From positions 32,001-96,000 of the IMG/VR virus record IMGVR_UViG_3300025519_000001: a DNA stretch of 64,000 nucleotides. One strand, 5' to 3'. Below are positions 10,304-46,593 of this stretch, one piece after another (the stretch's first letter is position 1; every line of letters starts with the position of its first letter). The stretch is from a virus. The notes under the pieces are model-generated. The model did no database searches. It was given only the letters and a program-made list of their open reading frames with translations, and had not been told where the DNA came from. The position numbers and the translations under genes were made by a program.

Positions 10304-11023
10304 TTGAATATGAGAAGAAAGTACAACTATGAGGATTATCATAAATTGATTGGCGGTGTTCTGCTTAAAAAGTGCGCTTATCATAAAGATATATTTGGCG
10401 AAGAAAAATGGCTGCCGTGTACTGAAGAATATTTTTATCCAAACAATAAAAATAAAACCGATGGTTTGTATCCCGAATGTCGAGAGTGTTCTAAAGTCAA
10501 AGCAACAAAATGGAGAAAAGATAATCCTGAAAAATATAAAGCCATTGACATGAAAAGAAACGAAGATGAGCGCAGATACGAATTCCTTAGACAAAATTCA
10601 AGAAGAAGGCGGGAAAATAGACAGAAAAAAGAATGGGATGACAAGAACAAAGATAAGTTATTTAAATATGGAAGATCAAGGAGACAACGAAAAACTCATA
10701 TTATCACCGACTATCAGTGGAATCGTTGTAAAGAGTATTTTAATTTCGAATGTGCTTACTGCGGCTTGCATATAGACGATCATTATCAAAAATATGCTGG
10801 AAAGCTAAGGAAAACTGATTTTCATAAAGAACATGTAGATGATGATGGAAGTAACGGAATTGATAACTGTGTTCCAAGTTGTCTTGTTTGTAATAGCAGT
10901 AAACATACCGCAGATTTTGAACAGTGGTATTCTCCTGAAGGTCGAGGGAAAGAAGTTTATTCTGAGGAAAGAAAATTAAAAATATTAAAATGGATTACTG
11001 AAGATTACAAACGATATATATAG
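10304..11023 (+). CDS. HNH endonuclease with N-terminal Zn-binding region
   Basis: CAYCG...HKEHV...NCVPSCLVCNSSK. Confidence 0.85.
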   Translation: MNMRRKYNYEDYHKLIGGVLLKKCAYHKDIFGEEKWLPCTEEYFYPNNKNKTDGLYPECRECSKVKATKWRKDNPEKYKAIDMKRNEDERRYEFLRQNSRRRRENRQKKEWDDKNKDKLFKYGRSRRQRKTHIITDYQWNRCKEYFNFECAYCGLHIDDHYQKYAGKLRKTDFHKEHVDDDGSNGIDNCVPSCLVCNSSKHTADFEQWYSPEGRGKEVYSEERKLKILKWITEDYKRYI

Positions 11024-11065
11024 AATTACGATCAAATTAAGATTTTGTGAGGAATTCAAAAAGGA

Positions 11066-12499
11066 GTGAATTACATGTGTTTTGAAGATACAAGCACAAG
11101 CAATAATATATATTCAATCATGCAAGAAATTCAGCAAGTTCAAACAGAGATTGGAAGATTGCAATATCGTCTAATGCAATTGCAAATGAAGTTAGATGCT
11201 GAGTATAGCAAGAATGGTTGGAATAAGACTATTTACACAAAGGAAGATTATGCAATTCATAATGGAGGTTTTTAAATGGGAGTAGATTGGTACACATGTC
11301 AAAATTGTGGAAATGCATTTCATGATGCAGGACACTATGGACACTGTTCGAACTGCGAAGAAATGTATTGTGGGAAATGCTATGACAAGTTTGCTAGAAA
11401 GTACGGAGAAATTGATGAAGATCATGAACGTTATAGTTGGTATGGTGAAGCGCTTAAAGAATGCGATTGGTGCAATGGGACGAAGGTCGACGCTGATGAA
11501 CTGTTGGATTTTGCTTTAAAAAAACTTAATCTTACCGAACAGGAACTTAAAGATGAATATGTTTTAATGAAATATGGTAAATGAAAGGTAGATTTGATTG
11601 GAGGATAAGTATGAAAGTTATTTTAAATCGAAGACATTATGGAGTACATTCGCCAATTAAAGAAGCAATTATTGATGGTGAATTTACGGATTATTATTTG
11701 GGCGAAGATCAAATTAATGAAGAATTGTTACTGAAAAATCTTCCCGAAGGATTCCTTCCTGTAAGTCCAAGTAAGGTGCTATTGTCTGTGCAAAATGTAA
11801 GCAGCAAAACAGGAGATGTTATTGGCGCCACAGGACAGAGAGGATTGAAGAAATTCAAGAATTGGGCGAAGTATTTTGATGCATATAATCTTGAACTATG
11901 TAGAAAGTAAAACATGATGAATGTTAGTTTTTATTGGGAAGGGAGTAGTTAAATATGGCAGATAAAAGAGATGATTTTTTAAAGTGGGTTATGACTTTGC
12001 AAAGAATTGCTTCAAATACAGTGTTGGGGTATGAAAGATCACTCAGACAATATTTGACCGAAGAAGAATATAGAAATGCAGAATATTATTTTGATAGTCT
12101 CTATGTTGAAGATTTACCGAATATCCGGTAGTGCTAAATTCCAATCAAATATAGGGTTTGATAGGGAAAAGGGAAGGTGATTGATTGAATATCTGGGATA
12201 AAGAATCATTTGAAGTTGATTACCAAGGTAAAAAATATAGGTTTACAAAATTAGGAATTGATATTTCTGAAATTTGGGGCAAGCCACGCGGAACAGTTGA
12301 AGTTAGTCACAAAATTGAAAGTGATGGACTTCCTATAACTTTTTATATGATTACTGATCTTGAAGAAGGAACATTTGGTTTTGGACATAAGGTTGTCGAA
12401 AATGGGAAGGACAATGGACTATTCGTAACGTTGCAAGATGAAGTATTGTTTGAGCAACTTGCTACACTTGTTGGGTATATTGATGAAACCTACAATTAA
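11066..12499 (+). CDS. small hypothetical genes (11066-11275, 11276-11584 Zn-finger, ~11611-11910, 11955-12131, 12185-12499)
   Basis: Short ORFs with RBS, separated by the palindromic motif. Confidence 0.5.
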
Positions 12500-27772: not shown

Positions 27773-29088
27773 AAATCCACCACAAGAAAGCCCCTGTCTT
27801 TAGGCATGGGGATGAATTGTGGTAGGATAAGTTGGTAAAAACTTGATTTTCATAACTAAAATATGATATATTTATTATAAGAAAAAAGAACGGAGGTGAC
27901 ATTTGTGCAATCCATCACTGTAAAAATCAGATTTTTTCCTGATAACCCAAAGGTCATTAAAGAAGCATCACAAGAATATATCAATATTGTCAATAAATTA
28001 TCTCAACAAGCAGTAGAAAATAAAACTTTCCCTAAAATCACAACAAAAGATATTTCAACTTTTCTTCCATCTGCTGTTTGCAATCAAGCGATCAGAGACG
28101 CAAAATCTGTATATACCAAGTATAAAAAAACCAAAAAATTATCTGTTCTTAAGAAGCCAGTATATTATATTAATAATCAAAATTATACCATTCTTGATAA
28201 TGCAATTGCCTTTCCTATATCTATTAACGGAAAAACGAAAAAGACATATTTTAAAGCCATTGCAACAGATAGAGATATAGAATTAATCAAAAAATCCAAA
28301 CTTGGTCTTATGCGTATTGTAGAGAAATCAGGTAAATGGTATGCTCAAGTGTCCATTCAAATTCCAGAAGAAAAATTTAGTGGCGAAAATATCATGGGCA
28401 TTGATCTTGGCTTAAAAGTTCCTGCTGTTGCTGTAACATCAACAGGCAAGACAAGATTTTTTGGTAATGGTAGGCAAATGAAATATGTCAGGCGCAAATA
28501 TCAGTCTCGCAGAAGAAAATTGGGTAAACTTAAAAAACTTTCGGCCATCAAAAAATTAGGCGATAAAGAAAGCAGATGGATAAAAGACCAAAATCATAAA
28601 ATCAGTAGACAGATTGTGAATTATGCTATACAAGAAAATGCAAGTATGATAAAACTAGAAAAATTAGAAAATATTCGCAAGACGACAAGAACAAGTCGTA
28701 AAAACGCAAGGAATCTGCACAACTGGTCATTCTATCAACTGCAACAGTTTATCACATATAAGGCTAACTTGGCAGGAATTAAAGTTATAGAAGTTAATCC
28801 TGCATATACAAGTCAAACATGTCCTCGTTGTGGTAAACGAAATAAAGCAGATGATAGACGATATGAATGCTCATGTGGATTCAAGACACATAGAGATCGG
28901 GTTGGTGCAATAAACATCATGAACCAACCTGTGGCAGATGGTAACAGTCTGCCAGCCTAAGAACCTATATGGTCTGTCTTAGGATGGGCTGATGGCACAG
29001 CCCTTAACTTGGAGATTGCACGAAGTAGAAATGCATGAGTGCGCGAATCATCCAAGAATCCCTCGGATTTATCCGTGGGGAGTGTCAA
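27773..29088 (+). mobile_element. non-autonomous IS200/IS605 (tnpB-only) element inserted after TTAC
   Basis: Left-end hairpin CCCCTGTCTTTAGGCATGGGG, right end ...GGGAGTGTCAA; removal restores an ORF in frame. Confidence 0.85.
27896..28960 (+). CDS. tnpB: TnpB RNA-guided endonuclease (likely start GTG 27905)
   Basis: RuvC D (GIDLG), E (IKLEKL), D (HRDRVGAIN), Zn finger CPRCG/CSCG. Confidence 0.92.
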   Translation: MTFVQSITVKIRFFPDNPKVIKEASQEYINIVNKLSQQAVENKTFPKITTKDISTFLPSAVCNQAIRDAKSVYTKYKKTKKLSVLKKPVYYINNQNYTILDNAIAFPISINGKTKKTYFKAIATDRDIELIKKSKLGLMRIVEKSGKWYAQVSIQIPEEKFSGENIMGIDLGLKVPAVAVTSTGKTRFFGNGRQMKYVRRKYQSRRRKLGKLKKLSAIKKLGDKESRWIKDQNHKISRQIVNYAIQENASMIKLEKLENIRKTTRTSRKNARNLHNWSFYQLQQFITYKANLAGIKVIEVNPAYTSQTCPRCGKRNKADDRRYECSCGFKTHRDRVGAINIMNQPVADGNSLPA

Positions 29089-40310: not shown

Positions 40311-40400
40311 TATAAAAAAGTATAGCTAAAAAGGGATGTAATTTAAAATTAAAATTCACCATAAAAGACACGTTTCATATGCTAATATTCAAACTTTAAA

Positions 40401-40443
40401 GTGCGAATCCCAAGCGAACATAAAAACTCTAGGAGATTCGCAC
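40401..40443 (+). promoter_or_regulatory. CRISPR leader inverted repeat (copy 1)
   Basis: GTGCGAATC-N25-GATTCGCAC; near-identical copy at 42500-42542. Confidence 0.7.
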
Positions 40444-40452
40444 CAAATTTAC

Positions 40453-40622
40453 AGGGCGACTCGGCGTCCAAAATCGAGAAAGCATGTGAATTTACATATG
40501 ATTTACCTATTTCACATGCACTCGATAACGTATCTATATTTTAAAATGTGCTTATAGATACGACCATTCTCGTTTTTATAGGAGAATGCACTTTGTGCGA
40601 ATAAATATGCACACTTTTTGCT
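40453..40622 (+). ncRNA. putative Cas12f tracrRNA 1
   Basis: Stem ATCGAG/CTCGAT, two further hairpins, anti-repeat CACTTTGTGCGAAT at 40589-40602; parallels 42560-42745. Confidence 0.7.
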
Positions 40623-40835
40623 GTTGCAATTCGCACATGCACATAAAGTGTGAGAAGGGAGACTAAGGCTAAAGTCTTTGCTAGGCTAGTTGCAATTCGC
40701 ACATGCACATAAAGTGTGAGAATGGGAGAATGTAGATCGTGACTCTGCCTTATAGTTGCAATTCGCACATGCACATAAAGTGTGAGCTAGATCGACTATA
40801 TATGCGGAGCTTAAAAATTATTGCAATTCGCACAT
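40623..40835 (+). CRISPR. CRISPR array: three identical 32-bp repeats GTTGCAATTCGCACATGCACATAAAGTGTGAG plus a partial fourth; spacers of 34, 34, 33 bp
   Basis: Repeats 40623-40654, 40689-40720, 40755-40786, partial 40820-40835. Confidence 0.95.
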
Positions 40836-40867
40836 ATATAATGTTAAAATAATGAGGGGTTTTATAT

Positions 40868-42478
40868 ATGCCTAAAAAAGAAAAAGATGATAATAAGATT
40901 GTGAAAATTGTAAAAGTAGAGATTGATAGGATTGTTGGAATAAAAGAAGATCATTTTAATGTTATAGCAAAAAAACTTCAAAGCGAATCTCTTGATATGC
41001 GAAATCAATTTATCGCAGAGTTATGGAAGTGGAATAATTTTGAAGATGACTATAAAACAAGATACTACTCTAATCCAGATACAAAGGAATATTTATTTAA
41101 TAAAAAGAAAGGGAGTCCATATGGATCAATAAGGGGGTATGCTGAGGACGTAGTGAAAGAAAATAAAATATCGTATTCTGGTATAATTAGTGCAAACACA
41201 AATAAAGCTCTTAGTAGATGGAATAAATTCTTAAAAGATCGCGAAAACTATAGAGAAGGAAAATATCCAGCAATACCATGTTTTACAAGACCAGAAATTC
41301 TATTTCGTGCTTCTGATACAGAGATAATTAAGAAAGATGCAAAATATGAATGCAAATTACCTTTACTTGGTAGAGATGGAGTTAAAATTGCTGATCTTCT
41401 AGTTAAAAAATATGAAGAAGAAAAACGCACTGAAAAACTAAGAAGAGAAGAATTAAAAAAAGAATATAAGAATCTTGAAGAAAAAGGCGTAGAAATAACC
41501 AAAGAAATTAAAGATAAACTGTGGATTAAAGTTAAAAATAAAATTAAAGAAAAGAGTGAAGAAGAACTTAAAAATGATGAACCGATTATCACCTCTAGTA
41601 GCTATCAAGCTATTTTGAAACTATCTGATACATATGATAATACAACAATCATAAACAGAATTATTAATGGCGAATATAAAATGGGTGAAAGCAGTTTACG
41701 AAAATTAAAAAACAAATGGATACTATTTATCACATACAGTTTTGAAAAGCAGTCAAAGGGGCTTGATCCAAATATAATTTTGGGTGTAGATATAGGAGTT
41801 AATGATCCAGCACATATGATAGTTTATGATTCCAATAATAAAAAATGGGGGAAAAAGAAATGGATTGATGGTAAAGAAATCGAAGCGTTTCGTAAGAAAC
41901 GTGATGTTATGAAGAGATCAATACAAAAACAAGCTGCTTATTGTGGAGAAGGAAGAAGAGGACATGGGAGGAAAACAAGAATGAATGCGGTTGAAAAGAT
42001 TGATGGAATGATTAAGAGATTTAAAAATACATGCAACCATAAATATTCTAGATTTATTGTTGATTTTGCTTTAAAAAACAATTGTGGAGTAATTCAGATG
42101 GAAAACTTATCAGGAATTGCTGATGGAGAAAAGAAAGCAACATTCTTGGGTGATTGGACTTTTTATGATTTGCAACAAAAAATAAAATATAAAGCTGATG
42201 AAGTTGGAATTAAAGTTATATTTATTAAACCAAATCACACGTCTGCAAGGTGTAGTAATTGTGGTTTCATTCATGATAATAAATTAAAAGATATTTGGAG
42301 ACCAGAAACAAAACAATTCAAATGTATGAAGTGTGACTATGGACATAGGCGATTTGTCCACGCAGATGATAATGCAGCTAGGAATATTTCGCTTCCAGAT
42401 ATCGAAAATATTATCGAAGAACAACTAGACCTCCAAAACAAAGAAGCAAAACATGCATTAAAGTATATTGCAGAATAA
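40868..42478 (+). CDS. cas12f: Cas12f1 (type V-F) RNA-guided nuclease, 536 aa
   Basis: Colinear with AsCas12f1 as recalled (GHGRK, NHKYSRFIVD, WTFYDLQQKI.YKA); RuvC D (GVDIG), E (QMENL), D (HADDNAARNI); Zn finger CSNC/CMKC; adjacent CRISPR array. Confidence 0.9.
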   Translation: MPKKEKDDNKIVKIVKVEIDRIVGIKEDHFNVIAKKLQSESLDMRNQFIAELWKWNNFEDDYKTRYYSNPDTKEYLFNKKKGSPYGSIRGYAEDVVKENKISYSGIISANTNKALSRWNKFLKDRENYREGKYPAIPCFTRPEILFRASDTEIIKKDAKYECKLPLLGRDGVKIADLLVKKYEEEKRTEKLRREELKKEYKNLEEKGVEITKEIKDKLWIKVKNKIKEKSEEELKNDEPIITSSSYQAILKLSDTYDNTTIINRIINGEYKMGESSLRKLKNKWILFITYSFEKQSKGLDPNIILGVDIGVNDPAHMIVYDSNNKKWGKKKWIDGKEIEAFRKKRDVMKRSIQKQAAYCGEGRRGHGRKTRMNAVEKIDGMIKRFKNTCNHKYSRFIVDFALKNNCGVIQMENLSGIADGEKKATFLGDWTFYDLQQKIKYKADEVGIKVIFIKPNHTSARCSNCGFIHDNKLKDIWRPETKQFKCMKCDYGHRRFVHADDNAARNISLPDIENIIEEQLDLQNKEAKHALKYIAE

Positions 42479-42499
42479 ACTTTTTATACATTCTCTCTG

Positions 42500-42542
42500 G
42501 TGCGAATCCCAAGTTCACATAAAATCCCTAGAAGATTCGCAC
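42500..42542 (+). promoter_or_regulatory. CRISPR leader inverted repeat (copy 2)
   Basis: GTGCGAATC-N25-GATTCGCAC. Confidence 0.7.
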
Positions 42543-42559
42543 TTCTAATAAACATTAAG

Positions 42560-42745
42560 GGGCGACTCGGTAGAATGGAACATCTTAGTCAGTCATCCGT
42601 CCTAAATCGAGATAGTGCGGTTATACATATTTAACTTAACCGTTCACACTCGATAAGGTATCCCGAAAGGGTGAAACCCTACTCACAAAATCCGAGTAGG
42701 CACTTCATACAGAATATTTATGTATATTTATTCACACTTTCCGCA
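42560..42745 (+). ncRNA. putative Cas12f tracrRNA 2
   Basis: CTCGATAAGGTATCCCGAAAGGGTGAAACCCTACTCACAAAATCCGAGTAGGCACTTCATAC resembles the AsCas12f1 tracrRNA core; anti-repeat at 42701-42710. Confidence 0.75.
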
Positions 42746-42777
42746 GTTGCAATTTATATGTACGTATGAAGTGTGAG
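42746..42777 (+). CRISPR. single variant repeat GTTGCAATTTATATGTACGTATGAAGTGTGAG followed by a putative guide
   Basis: 32 bp, same first 9 and last 9 nt as array repeat, divergent centre. Confidence 0.8.
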
Positions 42778-43250
42778 AAAATACTAGATTAAGTCTTGTT
42801 ATGAAATTAGCTAAAGATATTACTTCGGCTCTGATTGAGCGATTCCCCCTAGAGTATGAAAAAGAAAATATTAAAATAAAAAATATTAAAGATAAAGATT
42901 TGGTTAAACGAATTAAAAAGAAAGGGTTAAGCGTAGAGTTGATCACAAAATAAAACATGAAAGATGCATTTCATTAAATGATGTGATGAAGCTTGAGAAT
43001 AAAAGTTATTGTTACAATTGAACTATTAAAATAAAAAATATCAAGATAATTCGAGAGGAGTATAAACAAAATGGATAAATACTCTCACTTAGACAAGGAA
43101 TATCTCGAATACTTAAAGGAGGGCTACTCTCAAAGATACATAGATCCAGACGATCCTTGGTTTACGGACTATGAACTTGAAGATAAGTACCTAGACGGAT
43201 ATGGCTTTGAAAATAAAAATAAAATAATACATAAAGGAGAGTAAAATAAA

Positions 43251-43645
43251 ATGGATTTGGGGTTAAAAAAGGCGGAAGACACGAACGCTGGATTTCGTTT
43301 GCCCTAAAAAAAGCAAAATACAGTAAAGTTCCACACTACAAACACTGTGCTGTTGTAATCAAGGGTGGAAGGCCAATTAGTATAGGAATTAATAAAACAA
43401 AAGCGGGATGTCTGGGAGATCCAATTTATTCTTTCCGCCAATGGCACAGTGAATTTGATGCCCTTTGTAACCTTGATGAGTCTCAAATTAAAAATGCTAT
43501 CTTGTATGTCGCAGGATGGACAAAGGGAGGTAATATTGCAAAATCCAAGCCATGCCCTCATTGTCAGGAGTATTTAAAAAAATTACCGTTAAAATCTATC
43601 GTATATTCAATGCCAGATGGAAGCTATGAAGAAATGGTTATATAA
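43251..43645 (+). CDS. cytidine/dCMP deaminase-family protein requiring a -1 frameshift (or frameshifted pseudogene)
   Basis: HSE (WHSEFDA) and PCxxC (KPCPHC) in the -1 frame relative to ATG 43251; A AAA AAG at 43265-43271. Confidence 0.7.
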
Positions 43646-44406: not shown

Positions 44407-46593
44407 ATGAGGTTGCTTGTTGTAACAAGAGGGGCAATGGGAGCAGGAAAATCTACTTGGATTAAAAATGCTGGTCTTGAACAATATACAATATCTCCAG
44501 ACCAAATTAGACTAATGATTCAAACTCCCGTAATGAATGAGACTGGTGGATTTTCAATTAGTGTAAAAAATGAAAAACGTGTATGGAATCTCTTATTTGA
44601 AGTATTAGAAGATCGTATGAAACGTGGAGAGTTTACTGTTATCGATGCAACCCACTCAAAAACTGAAGACTTTAAGAAATATAAAAAATTACTTGAGAAA
44701 TATCGTTACAGAATGATATGCGTTGATTTTACTGATGTTCCAATTGAAAAAGCAAAAGAACAAAATAGAAATAGAGAAAGTTATAAATTTGTTCCCGAAG
44801 ATCGTATTGATAATTTGTATGAAAGATTTAAAACACAAGAAGTACCTAATTGGGTCAAAGTTATCAAACCAAGCGAGTATGAAGAAGCAGTAAAATATAC
44901 CCCAAGAGATTTATCTTCATATAAAAAAATACATCACATCGGAGATATTCATGGTTGCTACGAGCCACTTCTTGAATATTTTAAAAGTGGACTTAAAGAT
45001 GATGAATTTTACATTTTCACAGGAGATTACATTGATAGAGGCATCCAAAACGCAGAAGTATTGAATTGGTTATTCTCTATTAAAGATAGGGATAATGTAA
45101 TTCTACTTGAAGGCAATCATGAAAAATGGTTATGGTATTGGGCCAACGAAGAACAAGAAAATATTCGAAGCCGAGAATTTAAAAATATTACACAAAAAGA
45201 ACTTGAACAAAAAGGAGTTGATAAAAAAGAAACTAGACAACTATATAGAAAACTACATCAAATTGTTTACTATACATACGGAAATAAGCAAGTTATTGTA
45301 ACTCATGGTGGCATTACAACAATGCCTGAAAACTTACTTTATATTGCGACCAACCAATTTATTGATGGTGTAGGAAGTTATGAATTAGATGTTGACAGAG
45401 TTTTCTTTGACAATACAGGCGATAATATTTTTCAAATTCATGGTCATAGAAACATTCAAAGGTTTCCAGTTCAAGTTAATGAAAGATGTTTTAACCTTGA
45501 AGGACAGATTGAACATGGAGAATATCTTAGAATTGTTACCCTAGATGAAGATGGATTTAAAACAAATGAGATTAAAAACAATGTATTCTCTAATCGCTTT
45601 ACAGCCGTTAATGAAAGTAATTCAACAAACGAAGCTATTTTAAAATTAAAAAATGATAAAACAATTATCGAGAAAAATCTTGGAGATGGAATTGTTTCAT
45701 TTAATTTTTCTTCCAATACTTTCAAGAAAGGAAAATGGAACAAAAACAACTTACAAGCTCGTGGCTTATTCGTAAATCTTGATACAGAAGAAATCGTGGC
45801 AAGAAGTTATAATAAATTTTTTAATGTTAATGAACGATATGAAACTAAAATAGATACACTAGGAAGAAATCTAAAATACCCTGTTGACATTTATCTAAAA
45901 GAAAATGGTTTTCTTGGTTTGGTAGGATATAACTCAGTAAATGATGAAGTTGTATTTTGTTCTAAATCTACAACAAAAAGCGATTTTGCGGGCTGGTTAA
46001 AAGAAATCTTCATTGATTCAATCACATTCAACAATATTGATCTTGATACAATTAAAACATATTTAAAAGATAATAATTGTACTTTGGTTTTTGAAGTAAT
46101 TGACCCTCAAAACGATCCTCATATTATTGAGTATCAGAATAGAGAAATTGTTCTACTTGATATTGTGAAAAGGACATTTGATTTTCAAAAAGAACCATAT
46201 GAAACTGTTCAGAATATAGCACAACAATTTGGCTTTAAATGCAAAGAAAAAGTTACTTCTTTTACTAACTGGAATGAATTTTACAACTGGTACACAAATA
46301 TTAAAGAAAATAAAAAATTGAAAATTGAGGGGTATGTTCTAGAAGATGCTTCTGGATTTATGACAAAAATTAAACTCCCCTATTATGGTTTTTGGAAACA
46401 TATGAGAAAGATCAAAGAAATTCTATCAAAGAAAAATCCAGTGTTCGACAAAAAAATTCTTTTTAGTAAATCAATGAATGAAGTGTATAATTGGATGATT
46501 ACTAAAGATAAAGATTATCTTCAAAAATCAAGTATTATTCAATTAAGAAATGATTTTTACAAAGAAGTTAAAAATCCTGATTTTGAATATTGA
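44407..46593 (+). CDS. trifunctional RNA repair enzyme: polynucleotide kinase + metallophosphoesterase + Rnl1-type RNA ligase
   Basis: GAMGAGKST; GDIHG/GDYIDRG/GNHE; ligase motif I KENG, YNKFFN, EGYV, KIK. Confidence 0.85.
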   Translation: MRLLVVTRGAMGAGKSTWIKNAGLEQYTISPDQIRLMIQTPVMNETGGFSISVKNEKRVWNLLFEVLEDRMKRGEFTVIDATHSKTEDFKKYKKLLEKYRYRMICVDFTDVPIEKAKEQNRNRESYKFVPEDRIDNLYERFKTQEVPNWVKVIKPSEYEEAVKYTPRDLSSYKKIHHIGDIHGCYEPLLEYFKSGLKDDEFYIFTGDYIDRGIQNAEVLNWLFSIKDRDNVILLEGNHEKWLWYWANEEQENIRSREFKNITQKELEQKGVDKKETRQLYRKLHQIVYYTYGNKQVIVTHGGITTMPENLLYIATNQFIDGVGSYELDVDRVFFDNTGDNIFQIHGHRNIQRFPVQVNERCFNLEGQIEHGEYLRIVTLDEDGFKTNEIKNNVFSNRFTAVNESNSTNEAILKLKNDKTIIEKNLGDGIVSFNFSSNTFKKGKWNKNNLQARGLFVNLDTEEIVARSYNKFFNVNERYETKIDTLGRNLKYPVDIYLKENGFLGLVGYNSVNDEVVFCSKSTTKSDFAGWLKEIFIDSITFNNIDLDTIKTYLKDNNCTLVFEVIDPQNDPHIIEYQNREIVLLDIVKRTFDFQKEPYETVQNIAQQFGFKCKEKVTSFTNWNEFYNWYTNIKENKKLKIEGYVLEDASGFMTKIKLPYYGFWKHMRKIKEILSKKNPVFDKKILFSKSMNEVYNWMITKDKDYLQKSSIIQLRNDFYKEVKNPDFEY

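Follow-up and report, generated by a model that had tools for sequence, protein, structure and literature searches.

Introduction

Among described CRISPR systems, the one closest to the phage Cas12f locus analyzed here is that of AsCas12f1 from Sulfoacidibacillus thermotolerans Y002 (formerly Acidibacillus sulfuroxidans; PDB 8J12, 8J3R, 7WJU, and 8DZJ). The phage locus, a cas12f gene with a leader hairpin, a trans-activating CRISPR RNA (tracrRNA), and repeats on each side, lies in a 64,000-nucleotide stretch of viral DNA (hereafter the window), which corresponds to bases 32001-96000 of the 154,759-bp IMG/VR virus record IMGVR_UViG_3300025519_000001, rated 96% complete. The two nucleases have the same fold and catalytic residues, and their RNA scaffolds are alike in stem 1, a CGAGAA...CTCGNTAAGGT stem, the stem-loops SL3 and SL4, and a two-part anti-repeat. 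In the AsCas12f1 locus (L093), the tracrRNA is encoded 3′ of the gene, as is that of the downstream unit of the phage, and the scaffold begins right after the stop codon; no Cas1 or Cas2 was found in its 5.5 kb. There are also clear differences. The phage protein has 536 residues, with a REC region ~70 residues longer, whereas AsCas12f has 422; the phage-borne locus has two tracrRNA-array units and the AsCas12f1 locus one; and the phage tracrRNAs abut their arrays and are each preceded by a hairpin, whereas the AsCas12f1 locus has no hairpin and ~130 nt between tracrRNA and array.

The phage arrays also resemble type I-C arrays of Bacillota, with which they share a 43-nt GTGCGAA...TTCGCAC hairpin, a TTTTGC(T/A) sequence before GT(C/T)GC, 32-nt repeats, and a 65-69-nt period. 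The 3′ half of the repeat, however, is GATTGAAAT in type I-C and AAGTGTGAG in the phage; the phage leader contains a tracrRNA and its effector is Cas12f, in contrast to the Cascade-Cas3 of type I-C; and the distance between hairpin and first repeat is 179-203 nt in the phage, compared with ~124 nt in type I-C. In TnpB-omega RNA and TranC systems, as here, a scaffold that may adopt a natural single-guide fold directly follows the gene of a small RuvC nuclease. Unlike those systems, the phage locus has true repeats, exchangeable spacers, and a separate anti-repeat, and no transposase or transposon ends were found.

Cas12j/CasPhi and Cas-lambda are phage-encoded miniature type V systems. Together with the Cas12 'hacker' (bioRxiv 10.1101/2025.01.20.633832), such systems are like the present locus in having a small Cas12, short arrays, no adaptation genes, and a presumed role in conflict between mobile elements, but they belong to another Cas12 clade and use another guide architecture; in the literature that we searched, neither duplicated tracrRNA-array units nor an I-C-type leader is described for them. 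Type IV-A3 CRISPR systems of plasmids are reported in a preprint (bioRxiv 10.1101/2023.06.23.546257) to lack an acquisition module and to gain spacers in trans. They provide a precedent for a mobile-element system without its own acquisition module, although trans use would be only an extrapolation for the phage, and they are class 1 systems of plasmids, whereas the phage locus is class 2 type V-F, with a proposed link to type I-C. Two tracrRNAs, a phage Cas12f, and an I-C leader motif have no description in the literature that we searched, which covered few subscription journals.

Here, we present comparisons indicating that the window probably carries a self-contained type V-F1 module, composed of one nuclease and two leader-tracrRNA-array units and lacking adaptation genes, in an SPbeta-like phage.

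Results

Two homologous units flank a phage cas12f gene

Two homologous units on the same (+) strand flank cas12f, each with a 43-nt hairpin, a tracrRNA, an anti-repeat, and one or more 32-nt repeats in the same order. The elements of the module are located as follows, with both promoter elements read from the sequence.

40361..40378, +: palindrome ATAAAA-N6-TTTCAT, apparent left border of an accessory cassette holding the whole module
40380..40388, +: putative extended −10 element (TGcTAATAT) of the upstream unit
40401..40443, +: 43-nt inverted-repeat hairpin of the upstream unit, a type I-C-style CRISPR leader motif
40447..40617, +: upstream tracrRNA, with stem 1, a long ATCGAG/CTCGAT stem, SL3, SL4, and the anti-repeat (40589-40602), then CACACTTTTT
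40623..40851, +: upstream CRISPR array, with 32-nt repeats at 40623, 40689, and 40755 and a degenerate fourth repeat at 40820-40851
40868..42478, +: cas12f, 536 residues (P0001), AsCas12f clade
42485..42490, +: putative weak −10 element (TATACA) of the downstream unit
42500..42542, +: second 43-nt leader hairpin of the type I-C style, found by pattern match
42553..42740, +: downstream tracrRNA, nearer the family consensus, with the anti-repeat at 42701-42710
42746..42777, +: single variant 32-nt repeat, apparently the one-repeat state of a variable mini-array
42778..42811, +: trailer that would read as a pseudo-guide and overlaps the ATG of a doubtful 50-residue open reading frame (42801-42953)
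42957..42974, +: palindrome ATGAAA-N6-TTTCAT, apparent right border of the cassette

In the upstream unit, GGGCGACTCGG starts at 40454, the anti-repeat CACTTTGTG occupies 40589-40597, and CACACTTT occupies 40610-40617; the downstream unit has GGGCGACTCGG at 42560, the anti-repeat CACTTCATAC at 42701-42710, and CACACTTT at 42733-42740. These two GGGCGACTCGG sites are the only ones in the 64 kb (0.03 expected), and the hairpin pattern used in our searches (GTGCG-N6-AAG-N3-ACAT-N2-AA-N13-CGCAC) has no matches in the 155-kb genome other than those at 40401 and 42500. The three spacers of the upstream array are 33-34 nt each, and the upstream tracrRNA has a fold z-score of −5.7 and a weak terminator-like site at 40594-40613 followed by a T-run. 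A simple promoter scan did not call the element at 40380..40388; hairpin-led units of other phages have TGnTATAAT at a similar place. In a MAFFT alignment, upstream spacer 1 and the downstream trailer look alike, but no more so than chance would allow in such AT-rich sequence. We also took as chance a candidate degenerate repeat at 43011 (GTTACAATT), which lies about four periods past the downstream repeat with none between.

P0001 is predicted to be a phage-borne AsCas12f-type nuclease with intact RuvC residues. First, its best PDB matches are the AsCas12f chains 8J3R, 8J12, 7WJU, and 8DZJ (E 4e-66 to 1e-63), compared with E 6e-28 for Un1Cas12f (7L48) and weak matches to LaTranC entries. Second, it contains the Cas12f1-like TNB domain (Pfam PF07282, E 5.6e-17); among NCBIfam models, only a generic TnpB subfamily passes, and the Cas12f2 model falls below its cut-off (97 vs 450 bits). 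Third, the RuvC catalytic triad D308/E412/D500 and the CxxC...CxxC zinc finger are intact, and in an alignment with 23 relatives D308, E412, and C462/C465/C486/C489 are invariant and D500 is nearly so. Its length falls within the 400-700 residues of type V-F1, and its C-terminal RuvC domain is split by the zinc-finger TNB domain as in that type; likeness to characterized Cas12f, an adjacent array, and a tracrRNA with the family scaffold and a complementary anti-repeat likewise point to type V-F1. Residues 125-258 stand where AsCas12f has ~65 residues.

A scan of viral contigs with this single protein found no close relatives, and a pattern search for relatives with GGGCGACTCGG...AAATCGAGA returned one match (L003) that lies inside a coding region and that we regard as chance. 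As a separate observation, proteins of Bacillus phage Mgbh1 (39982-40749) and Alicyclobacillus phage MMB025 (81753-82487) (entries H1-H3) are 45-47% identical to the C-terminal half of P0001 and carry only a 'transposase' annotation; they may belong to unrecognized Cas12f systems.

Both tracrRNAs match a bacterial AsCas12f-clade model

We built a covariance model (R1) from 13 bacterial AsCas12f-clade units, including the AsCas12f1 source locus and nothing from this phage; 11 of the 19 pairs in its alignment show compensatory changes. In the window, R1 matched only positions 42553-42714 (67.2 bits, E 3.5e-17) and 40447-40579 (49.4 bits, E 3.6e-12), with a next-best match at E 0.96. No Rfam family was found at either unit. 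Both units fold to the same series of stems despite their differing sequences. In an alignment of eight phage-clade units, which had itself been fitted to the R1 model, 95.3% of cells pair and 14 of 19 pairs have changed on both sides; none of 500 shuffles reached this, and sliding one partner reduced pairing to 27-41%. The downstream unit, which stands in the position usual for the family, appears to be the more canonical of the two, and the downstream flank of a 98%-identical relative (L009) differs by one substitution.

Across units, anti-repeat:repeat helices have 9-12 pairs. In the upstream unit, CACTTTGTG pairs with CATAAAGTG through nine pairs, one of them G·U, and in the downstream unit CACTTCATAC pairs with GTATGAAGTG through ten, all Watson-Crick. 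Two positions of this helix differ between the units on both sides. A second helix can be read in the upstream unit between GTGCGAAT and ATTCGCAC, and a weaker, wobble-containing equivalent is possible downstream. Because the stems and the repeat:anti-repeat pairs differ by compensatory changes, neither unit appears to be a decaying copy; both look like structured tracrRNA-repeat modules kept by compensatory change. The original prediction, made from the letters of the window, thus held up in several respects: all the elements that it had listed on both flanks are present on the + strand, although it had placed them ~1 nt off; the three upstream spacers and the single downstream repeat are as described; the upstream helix has one G·U pair and the downstream helix none, with compensatory changes at two positions; and the covariance modeling that it had proposed as a check, carried out here with R1, supports its claim that both units are under selection.

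Predicted discrimination between the units is one-way at best

Predicted duplex energies for each anti-repeat with each repeat were as follows.

Upstream anti-repeat with upstream repeat: −20.0 kcal/mol
Upstream anti-repeat with downstream repeat: −19.6 kcal/mol (three G·U pairs)
Downstream anti-repeat with downstream repeat: −18.6 / −19.9 kcal/mol
Downstream anti-repeat with upstream repeat: −13.2 / −16.5 kcal/mol

A second duplex computation gave the same picture, with −9.4 kcal/mol for the downstream tracrRNA and the upstream repeat vs −16.6 kcal/mol with its own. Because the upstream anti-repeat pairs equally well with both repeats, orthogonality would be one-way at best, with only the downstream tracrRNA discriminating. 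We also considered cognate vs non-cognate duplex energies as a covariation statistic (27 units, 14 units), but this measure was too noisy because the ends of the repeats are alike and, in some loci, the anti-repeat is placed further upstream; only individual helices were used.

Both arrays appear to vary in nature, with the downstream array in a one-repeat state in this genome. We compared the locus with Logan contigs of four metagenome runs from four separate studies (X1-X4). At the downstream repeat, X2 reads through the repeat into 34 new nucleotides and back into the start of the same repeat, and X4 has the repeat, 33 nucleotides that differ from those of X2, and the repeat again. A minor variant in X1, the run that is probably from the source sample, has other sequence after 42777. 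X3 carries different spacers in the upstream array, and its trailer is preceded by other sequence ending ...CCGCAG plus 24 nt. The contig of the 98%-identical relative stops exactly at 42777, and a 52%-identical relative (L004) has a repeat, a spacer, and a degenerate terminal repeat downstream of the gene.

These results bear on the most durable of the alternative explanations, which is that the two scaffolds are orthogonal and do separate jobs, the upstream unit serving immunity and the downstream unit acting as a fixed, omega-like single guide for regulation or for one fixed site such as the next gene. The compensatory differences between the units would suit this idea, as would the poor predicted pairing of the downstream tracrRNA with upstream repeats, the single downstream repeat in this genome, the overlap of the trailer with an ATG, and a location 3′ of the gene, the ancestral position of the omega-RNA/tracrRNA in the family. 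The upstream tracrRNA, however, is predicted to pair about equally well with the repeats of both units, and the downstream unit does not look like a fixed single guide because related strains hold repeat-spacer-repeat arrangements with different 33-34-nt spacers; L004 also holds a spacer and terminal repeat there. Moreover, the pseudo-guide has no second match in its own genome, the collected loci, or phage records (only a 20-nt chance match, E 0.3), and its own site is preceded by the end of the repeat rather than by a T-rich protospacer-adjacent motif. The 50-residue reading frame that the trailer overlaps has no ribosome-binding site, no homologue, and no Pfam or PHROG match. We therefore consider a division of labor between the units unlikely. 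Of the original prediction on this point, discrimination by the downstream tracrRNA survives, whereas mutual orthogonality and a fixed omegaRNA-like guide do not.

Leaders of the type I-C kind and a possible source of spacers

The leader hairpin is not specific to Cas12f, as it heads many IMG/VR arrays with ...GATTGAAAT repeats. Among 401 Clostridia genomes, we found 17 exact matches in 11 genomes and none with a reversed control. For 15 of the 17, an array follows 113-136 nt later, and 14 of these arrays have classic I-C repeats (GTCGC...GATTGAAAT) with leaders ending in TTTTGC. Cas8c, the I-C marker, was present in all five hairpin-bearing genomes tested and adjoins the hairpin in two. R1 does not match these I-C-type hairpin-led units. 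Cas12f arrays nonetheless have I-C features, namely a leader ending in TTTTGC(T/A) directly before a repeat that starts GTTGC, a 32-nt repeat, and a 65-67-nt period. In this phage, the hairpin, junction, repeat length, and period match those of an I-C array, as do the 33-34-nt spacers (33-35 nt in type I-C), but the repeat starts with GTTGC, not GTCGC; type I-C is further marked by a repeat handle (...GATTGAAA(C/T)) and by its cas genes (Cas8c, Cas5d, Cas7, Cas3, and Cas4-1-2), whereas the phage repeats end in AAGTGTGAG.

The median distance from hairpin to first repeat is 124 nt for I-C arrays vs 133 nt for Cas12f units. Cas12f loci of bacteria have the hairpin between the stop codon, which it directly follows, and the tracrRNA; in L037, L076, L122, L125, L130, and L131, it lies inside the tracrRNA, where it replaces SL3, and its distance from the first repeat stays at ~122-126 nt. 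Comparison of 63 copies showed sequence conservation but little covariation in the 7-nt arms and the inner AAG...ACATAAAA, a pattern that suggests a recognition site more than a plain RNA helix. The hairpin has no Rfam family.

No match to Cas1, Cas2, or Cas4 was found in the phage; Cas8c was not searched for there. Cas8c was present in 18 of 40 genomes with a Cas12f of this clade, the AsCas12f source genome included, compared with 28 in a background sample of 201 Clostridia (odds ratio 5.1, Fisher p 3e-5). Because the phage lacks Cas1, Cas2, and Cas4 and yet its arrays appear to turn over, spacers would most likely be inserted at the I-C-like leaders by the Cas1-Cas2-Cas4 of a type I-C system in the host, an idea to which we give a little under an even chance.

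Other hairpin-led arrays were noted in passing. Three phage records (G002, G003, and G005, the IMG/VR records behind L019 and L021-L024) have 4-6 dispersed mini-arrays whose repeats resemble those of type I-C and which are each accompanied by a TGnTATAAT element and a 43-nt leader hairpin; three of four records of this kind also have a 382-residue TnpB-like gene elsewhere in the genome, and G003 is without it. In L011 (IMGVR_UViG_3300018427_000033, 8968-11100), a Cas12f-like gene (29.5% identical over residues 254-509) lies between two hairpin-led arrays, whose repeats are either I-C-like (...GGATTGAAAC) or intermediate, with the first 14 nt of the upstream repeat of our phage and the 3′ end GATTGAAG. 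R1 found no match in this locus, which may link I-C repeats with Cas12f repeats.

Several units per nuclease recur in related loci

Of 80 bacterial loci, 11 had two or three R1 matches, and of 80 viral loci, 8 had at least two; in all, two to four tracrRNA(+array) units accompany one nuclease in ~12% of the related loci. In L035 (Aneurinibacillus danicus, protein 47% identical), a tracrRNA and array lie on each side of the nuclease gene, the two repeats are distinct and matched by their own anti-repeats, and SL4 shows compensatory changes. In L005 (45% identical), the upstream unit is complete, and the contig holds only the beginning of the downstream unit. Flanking pairs also occur in L037, L050, L067, L120, L140, and L186-188, and tandem pairs in L034, L061, L066, L069, L107, and L124. 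One 136-kb phage (L016 / G001, IMGVR_UViG_3300045988_183761) has four Cas12f-type hairpin-tracrRNA-array units in 11 kb and more hairpin copies elsewhere, with its sole nuclease gene (439 residues) ~25 kb from the first-found unit. Because copies within one genome are more alike than copies from other genomes, the comparison suggests repeated duplication of units as blocks, or their homogenization. The common multi-unit layout fits block duplication of a leader-tracrRNA-array module better than it fits two specialized roles, and the locus in the window appears to belong to a pattern seen repeatedly in Bacillota and their phages.

The same comparisons make it improbable that one unit is a non-functional duplicate in decay and that a single tracrRNA-array pair is in use. 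Such decay could account for a downstream array that is down to one repeat here, and for the lower score of the upstream tracrRNA on the family model (49 vs 67 bits) and its atypical SL3. Against it, stems are kept by two-sided changes in both units, both matches are far above noise, and both arrays differ between strains. Flanking pairs are also retained in lineages of only 45-47% protein identity.

The module lies in a bracketed segment of an SPbeta-like phage genome

The assignment of the record to a phage is supported by a polynucleotide kinase/RNA-ligase gene (44407-46593) that is 49% identical to genes of SPbeta-type Bacillus phages. A dispersed palindrome, ATRAAA-N6-TTTYAT, occurs 19 times in the window vs 0.43 expected. 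Because copies at 40361 and 42957 bracket the whole Cas12f module and contigs of runs X2, X3, and X4 part from the window sequence right after 42974, the module looks like one exchangeable accessory cassette. A contig joint in X3 (depth 74) and X2 (depth 2) leads from 40574 to 42753, skipping 2178 bp. It connects SL4 of the upstream tracrRNA to the downstream repeat through a 6-nt microhomology between the units and would delete cas12f; in X3, the joint and the cas12f contigs have similar depths.

These borders raise the possibility of a transposon-style element like TnpB or TranC, in which an RNA from the downstream, right-hand end would guide cutting of the empty site and so retain or home the cassette. 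A scaffold directly 3′ of the nuclease gene, as in TnpB, would fit such an element, as would the location between two dispersed palindromes with strain divergence right after the second, and a natural joint that removes the nuclease gene. Several observations nevertheless make this explanation very improbable. No TnpA/Y1 transposase domain was found among the neighboring reading frames tested; ~180 nt separate the guide from the cassette border; other strains have true exchangeable spacers between repeats at the guide position, at odds with an IS200/IS605 TnpB-omega RNA transposon; and the best structural relatives are CRISPR Cas12f proteins, with NCBIfam calling only the generic TnpB superfamily. 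We give almost no credence to the notion, raised in the original prediction, that one scaffold serves another Cas12f in trans, since the only candidate, a second RuvC/TNB protein of this genome (a 354-residue TnpB with PF07282 and OrfB_IS605, 27896-28960, +), is encoded 12 kb away with no R1 unit next to its gene, resembles P0001 over the RuvC part only (33-40% identity), and is of the usual TnpB size, and the dual-unit relatives L035 and L005 show no such second gene within their loci.

Two neighbors of the module can also be described. The gene at 44407-46593, downstream of the module, encodes a Pnkp-like kinase-phosphatase-RNA ligase fusion (AAA_33, Metallophos, and RNA_lig_T4_1 domains), and 43253-43645, also downstream, encodes a dCMP/cytidine deaminase-like protein.

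Discussion

The locus is best described, on present sequence comparisons, as an AsCas12f-type system with duplicated leader-embedded tracrRNA-array modules on I-C-style leaders. In the mechanism that we propose, each unit would consist, in order, of a probable promoter, a 43-nt I-C-type hairpin, a leader-embedded AsCas12f-type tracrRNA, an I-C-like junction of TTTGCT with GTTGC, and repeats and spacers. Transcription of each unit would start at its own promoter, immediately before the hairpin. Because the anti-repeat lies only ~20-35 nt ahead of the first repeat, the primary transcript could fold back on that repeat to act as a natural single guide carrying the first spacer, and it could also supply tracrRNA in trans to later repeats. 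The tracrRNA and array would be duplicated and transcribed as one block; co-evolution of repeat and anti-repeat within each block would explain the compensatory differences between units. Host I-C adaptation would supply the spacers, and the likely role would be cutting rival phages or other mobile DNA.

More broadly, and with less assurance than for this single locus, we tentatively suggest that the arrays of the AsCas12f clade in Bacillota and their phages are I-C leaders with a tracrRNA between the hairpin and the leader-repeat junction. Such an arrangement would form a modular, co-evolving block and would let V-F systems that lack adaptation genes, those of phages included, gain spacers through the Cas1-Cas2-Cas4 proteins of a host I-C system.

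Several points weigh against these proposals. First, no protospacer was found for any spacer in the genomes and databases searched: blastn-short searches with 13 spacers or flanks against the phage genome and all loci gave only chance-sized matches, and the upstream array had no match among INPHARED phages and PLSDB plasmids, so interference, including the PAM-dependent cleavage of double-stranded DNA by a homodimer on one guide RNA that is typical of type V-F1, remains predicted. Second, the array polymorphism comes from assembled contigs, some at 2-3.5x depth, and could reflect recombination between strains instead of acquisition. Third, the Cas8c enrichment takes no account of phylogeny or of the mix of Bacilli and Clostridia. 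Fourth, the hairpins of this phage, 179 and 203 nt from the first repeat, are further away than in I-C arrays, and the 3′ half of the repeat appears unlike the I-C handle. Finally, the arms of the hairpin keep their sequence and covary little, and a role of the hairpin as a recognition site is putative.

If our proposals are correct, an SPbeta-like phage joins the viruses that carry type V systems, with a modular and often duplicated guide unit set on an I-C leader and with arrays that change in a phage without adaptation genes. The spacer nearest the leader would give rise to a natural single-guide RNA. No CRISPR nuclease in wide genome-editing use is smaller than Cas12f, and two natural, divergent tracrRNA/repeat pairs for one nuclease would be useful for studying scaffold tolerance and possibly for multiplexing. 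The 2.6-kb cassette also makes testable how V-F1 loci without Cas1 and Cas2 may gain spacers.

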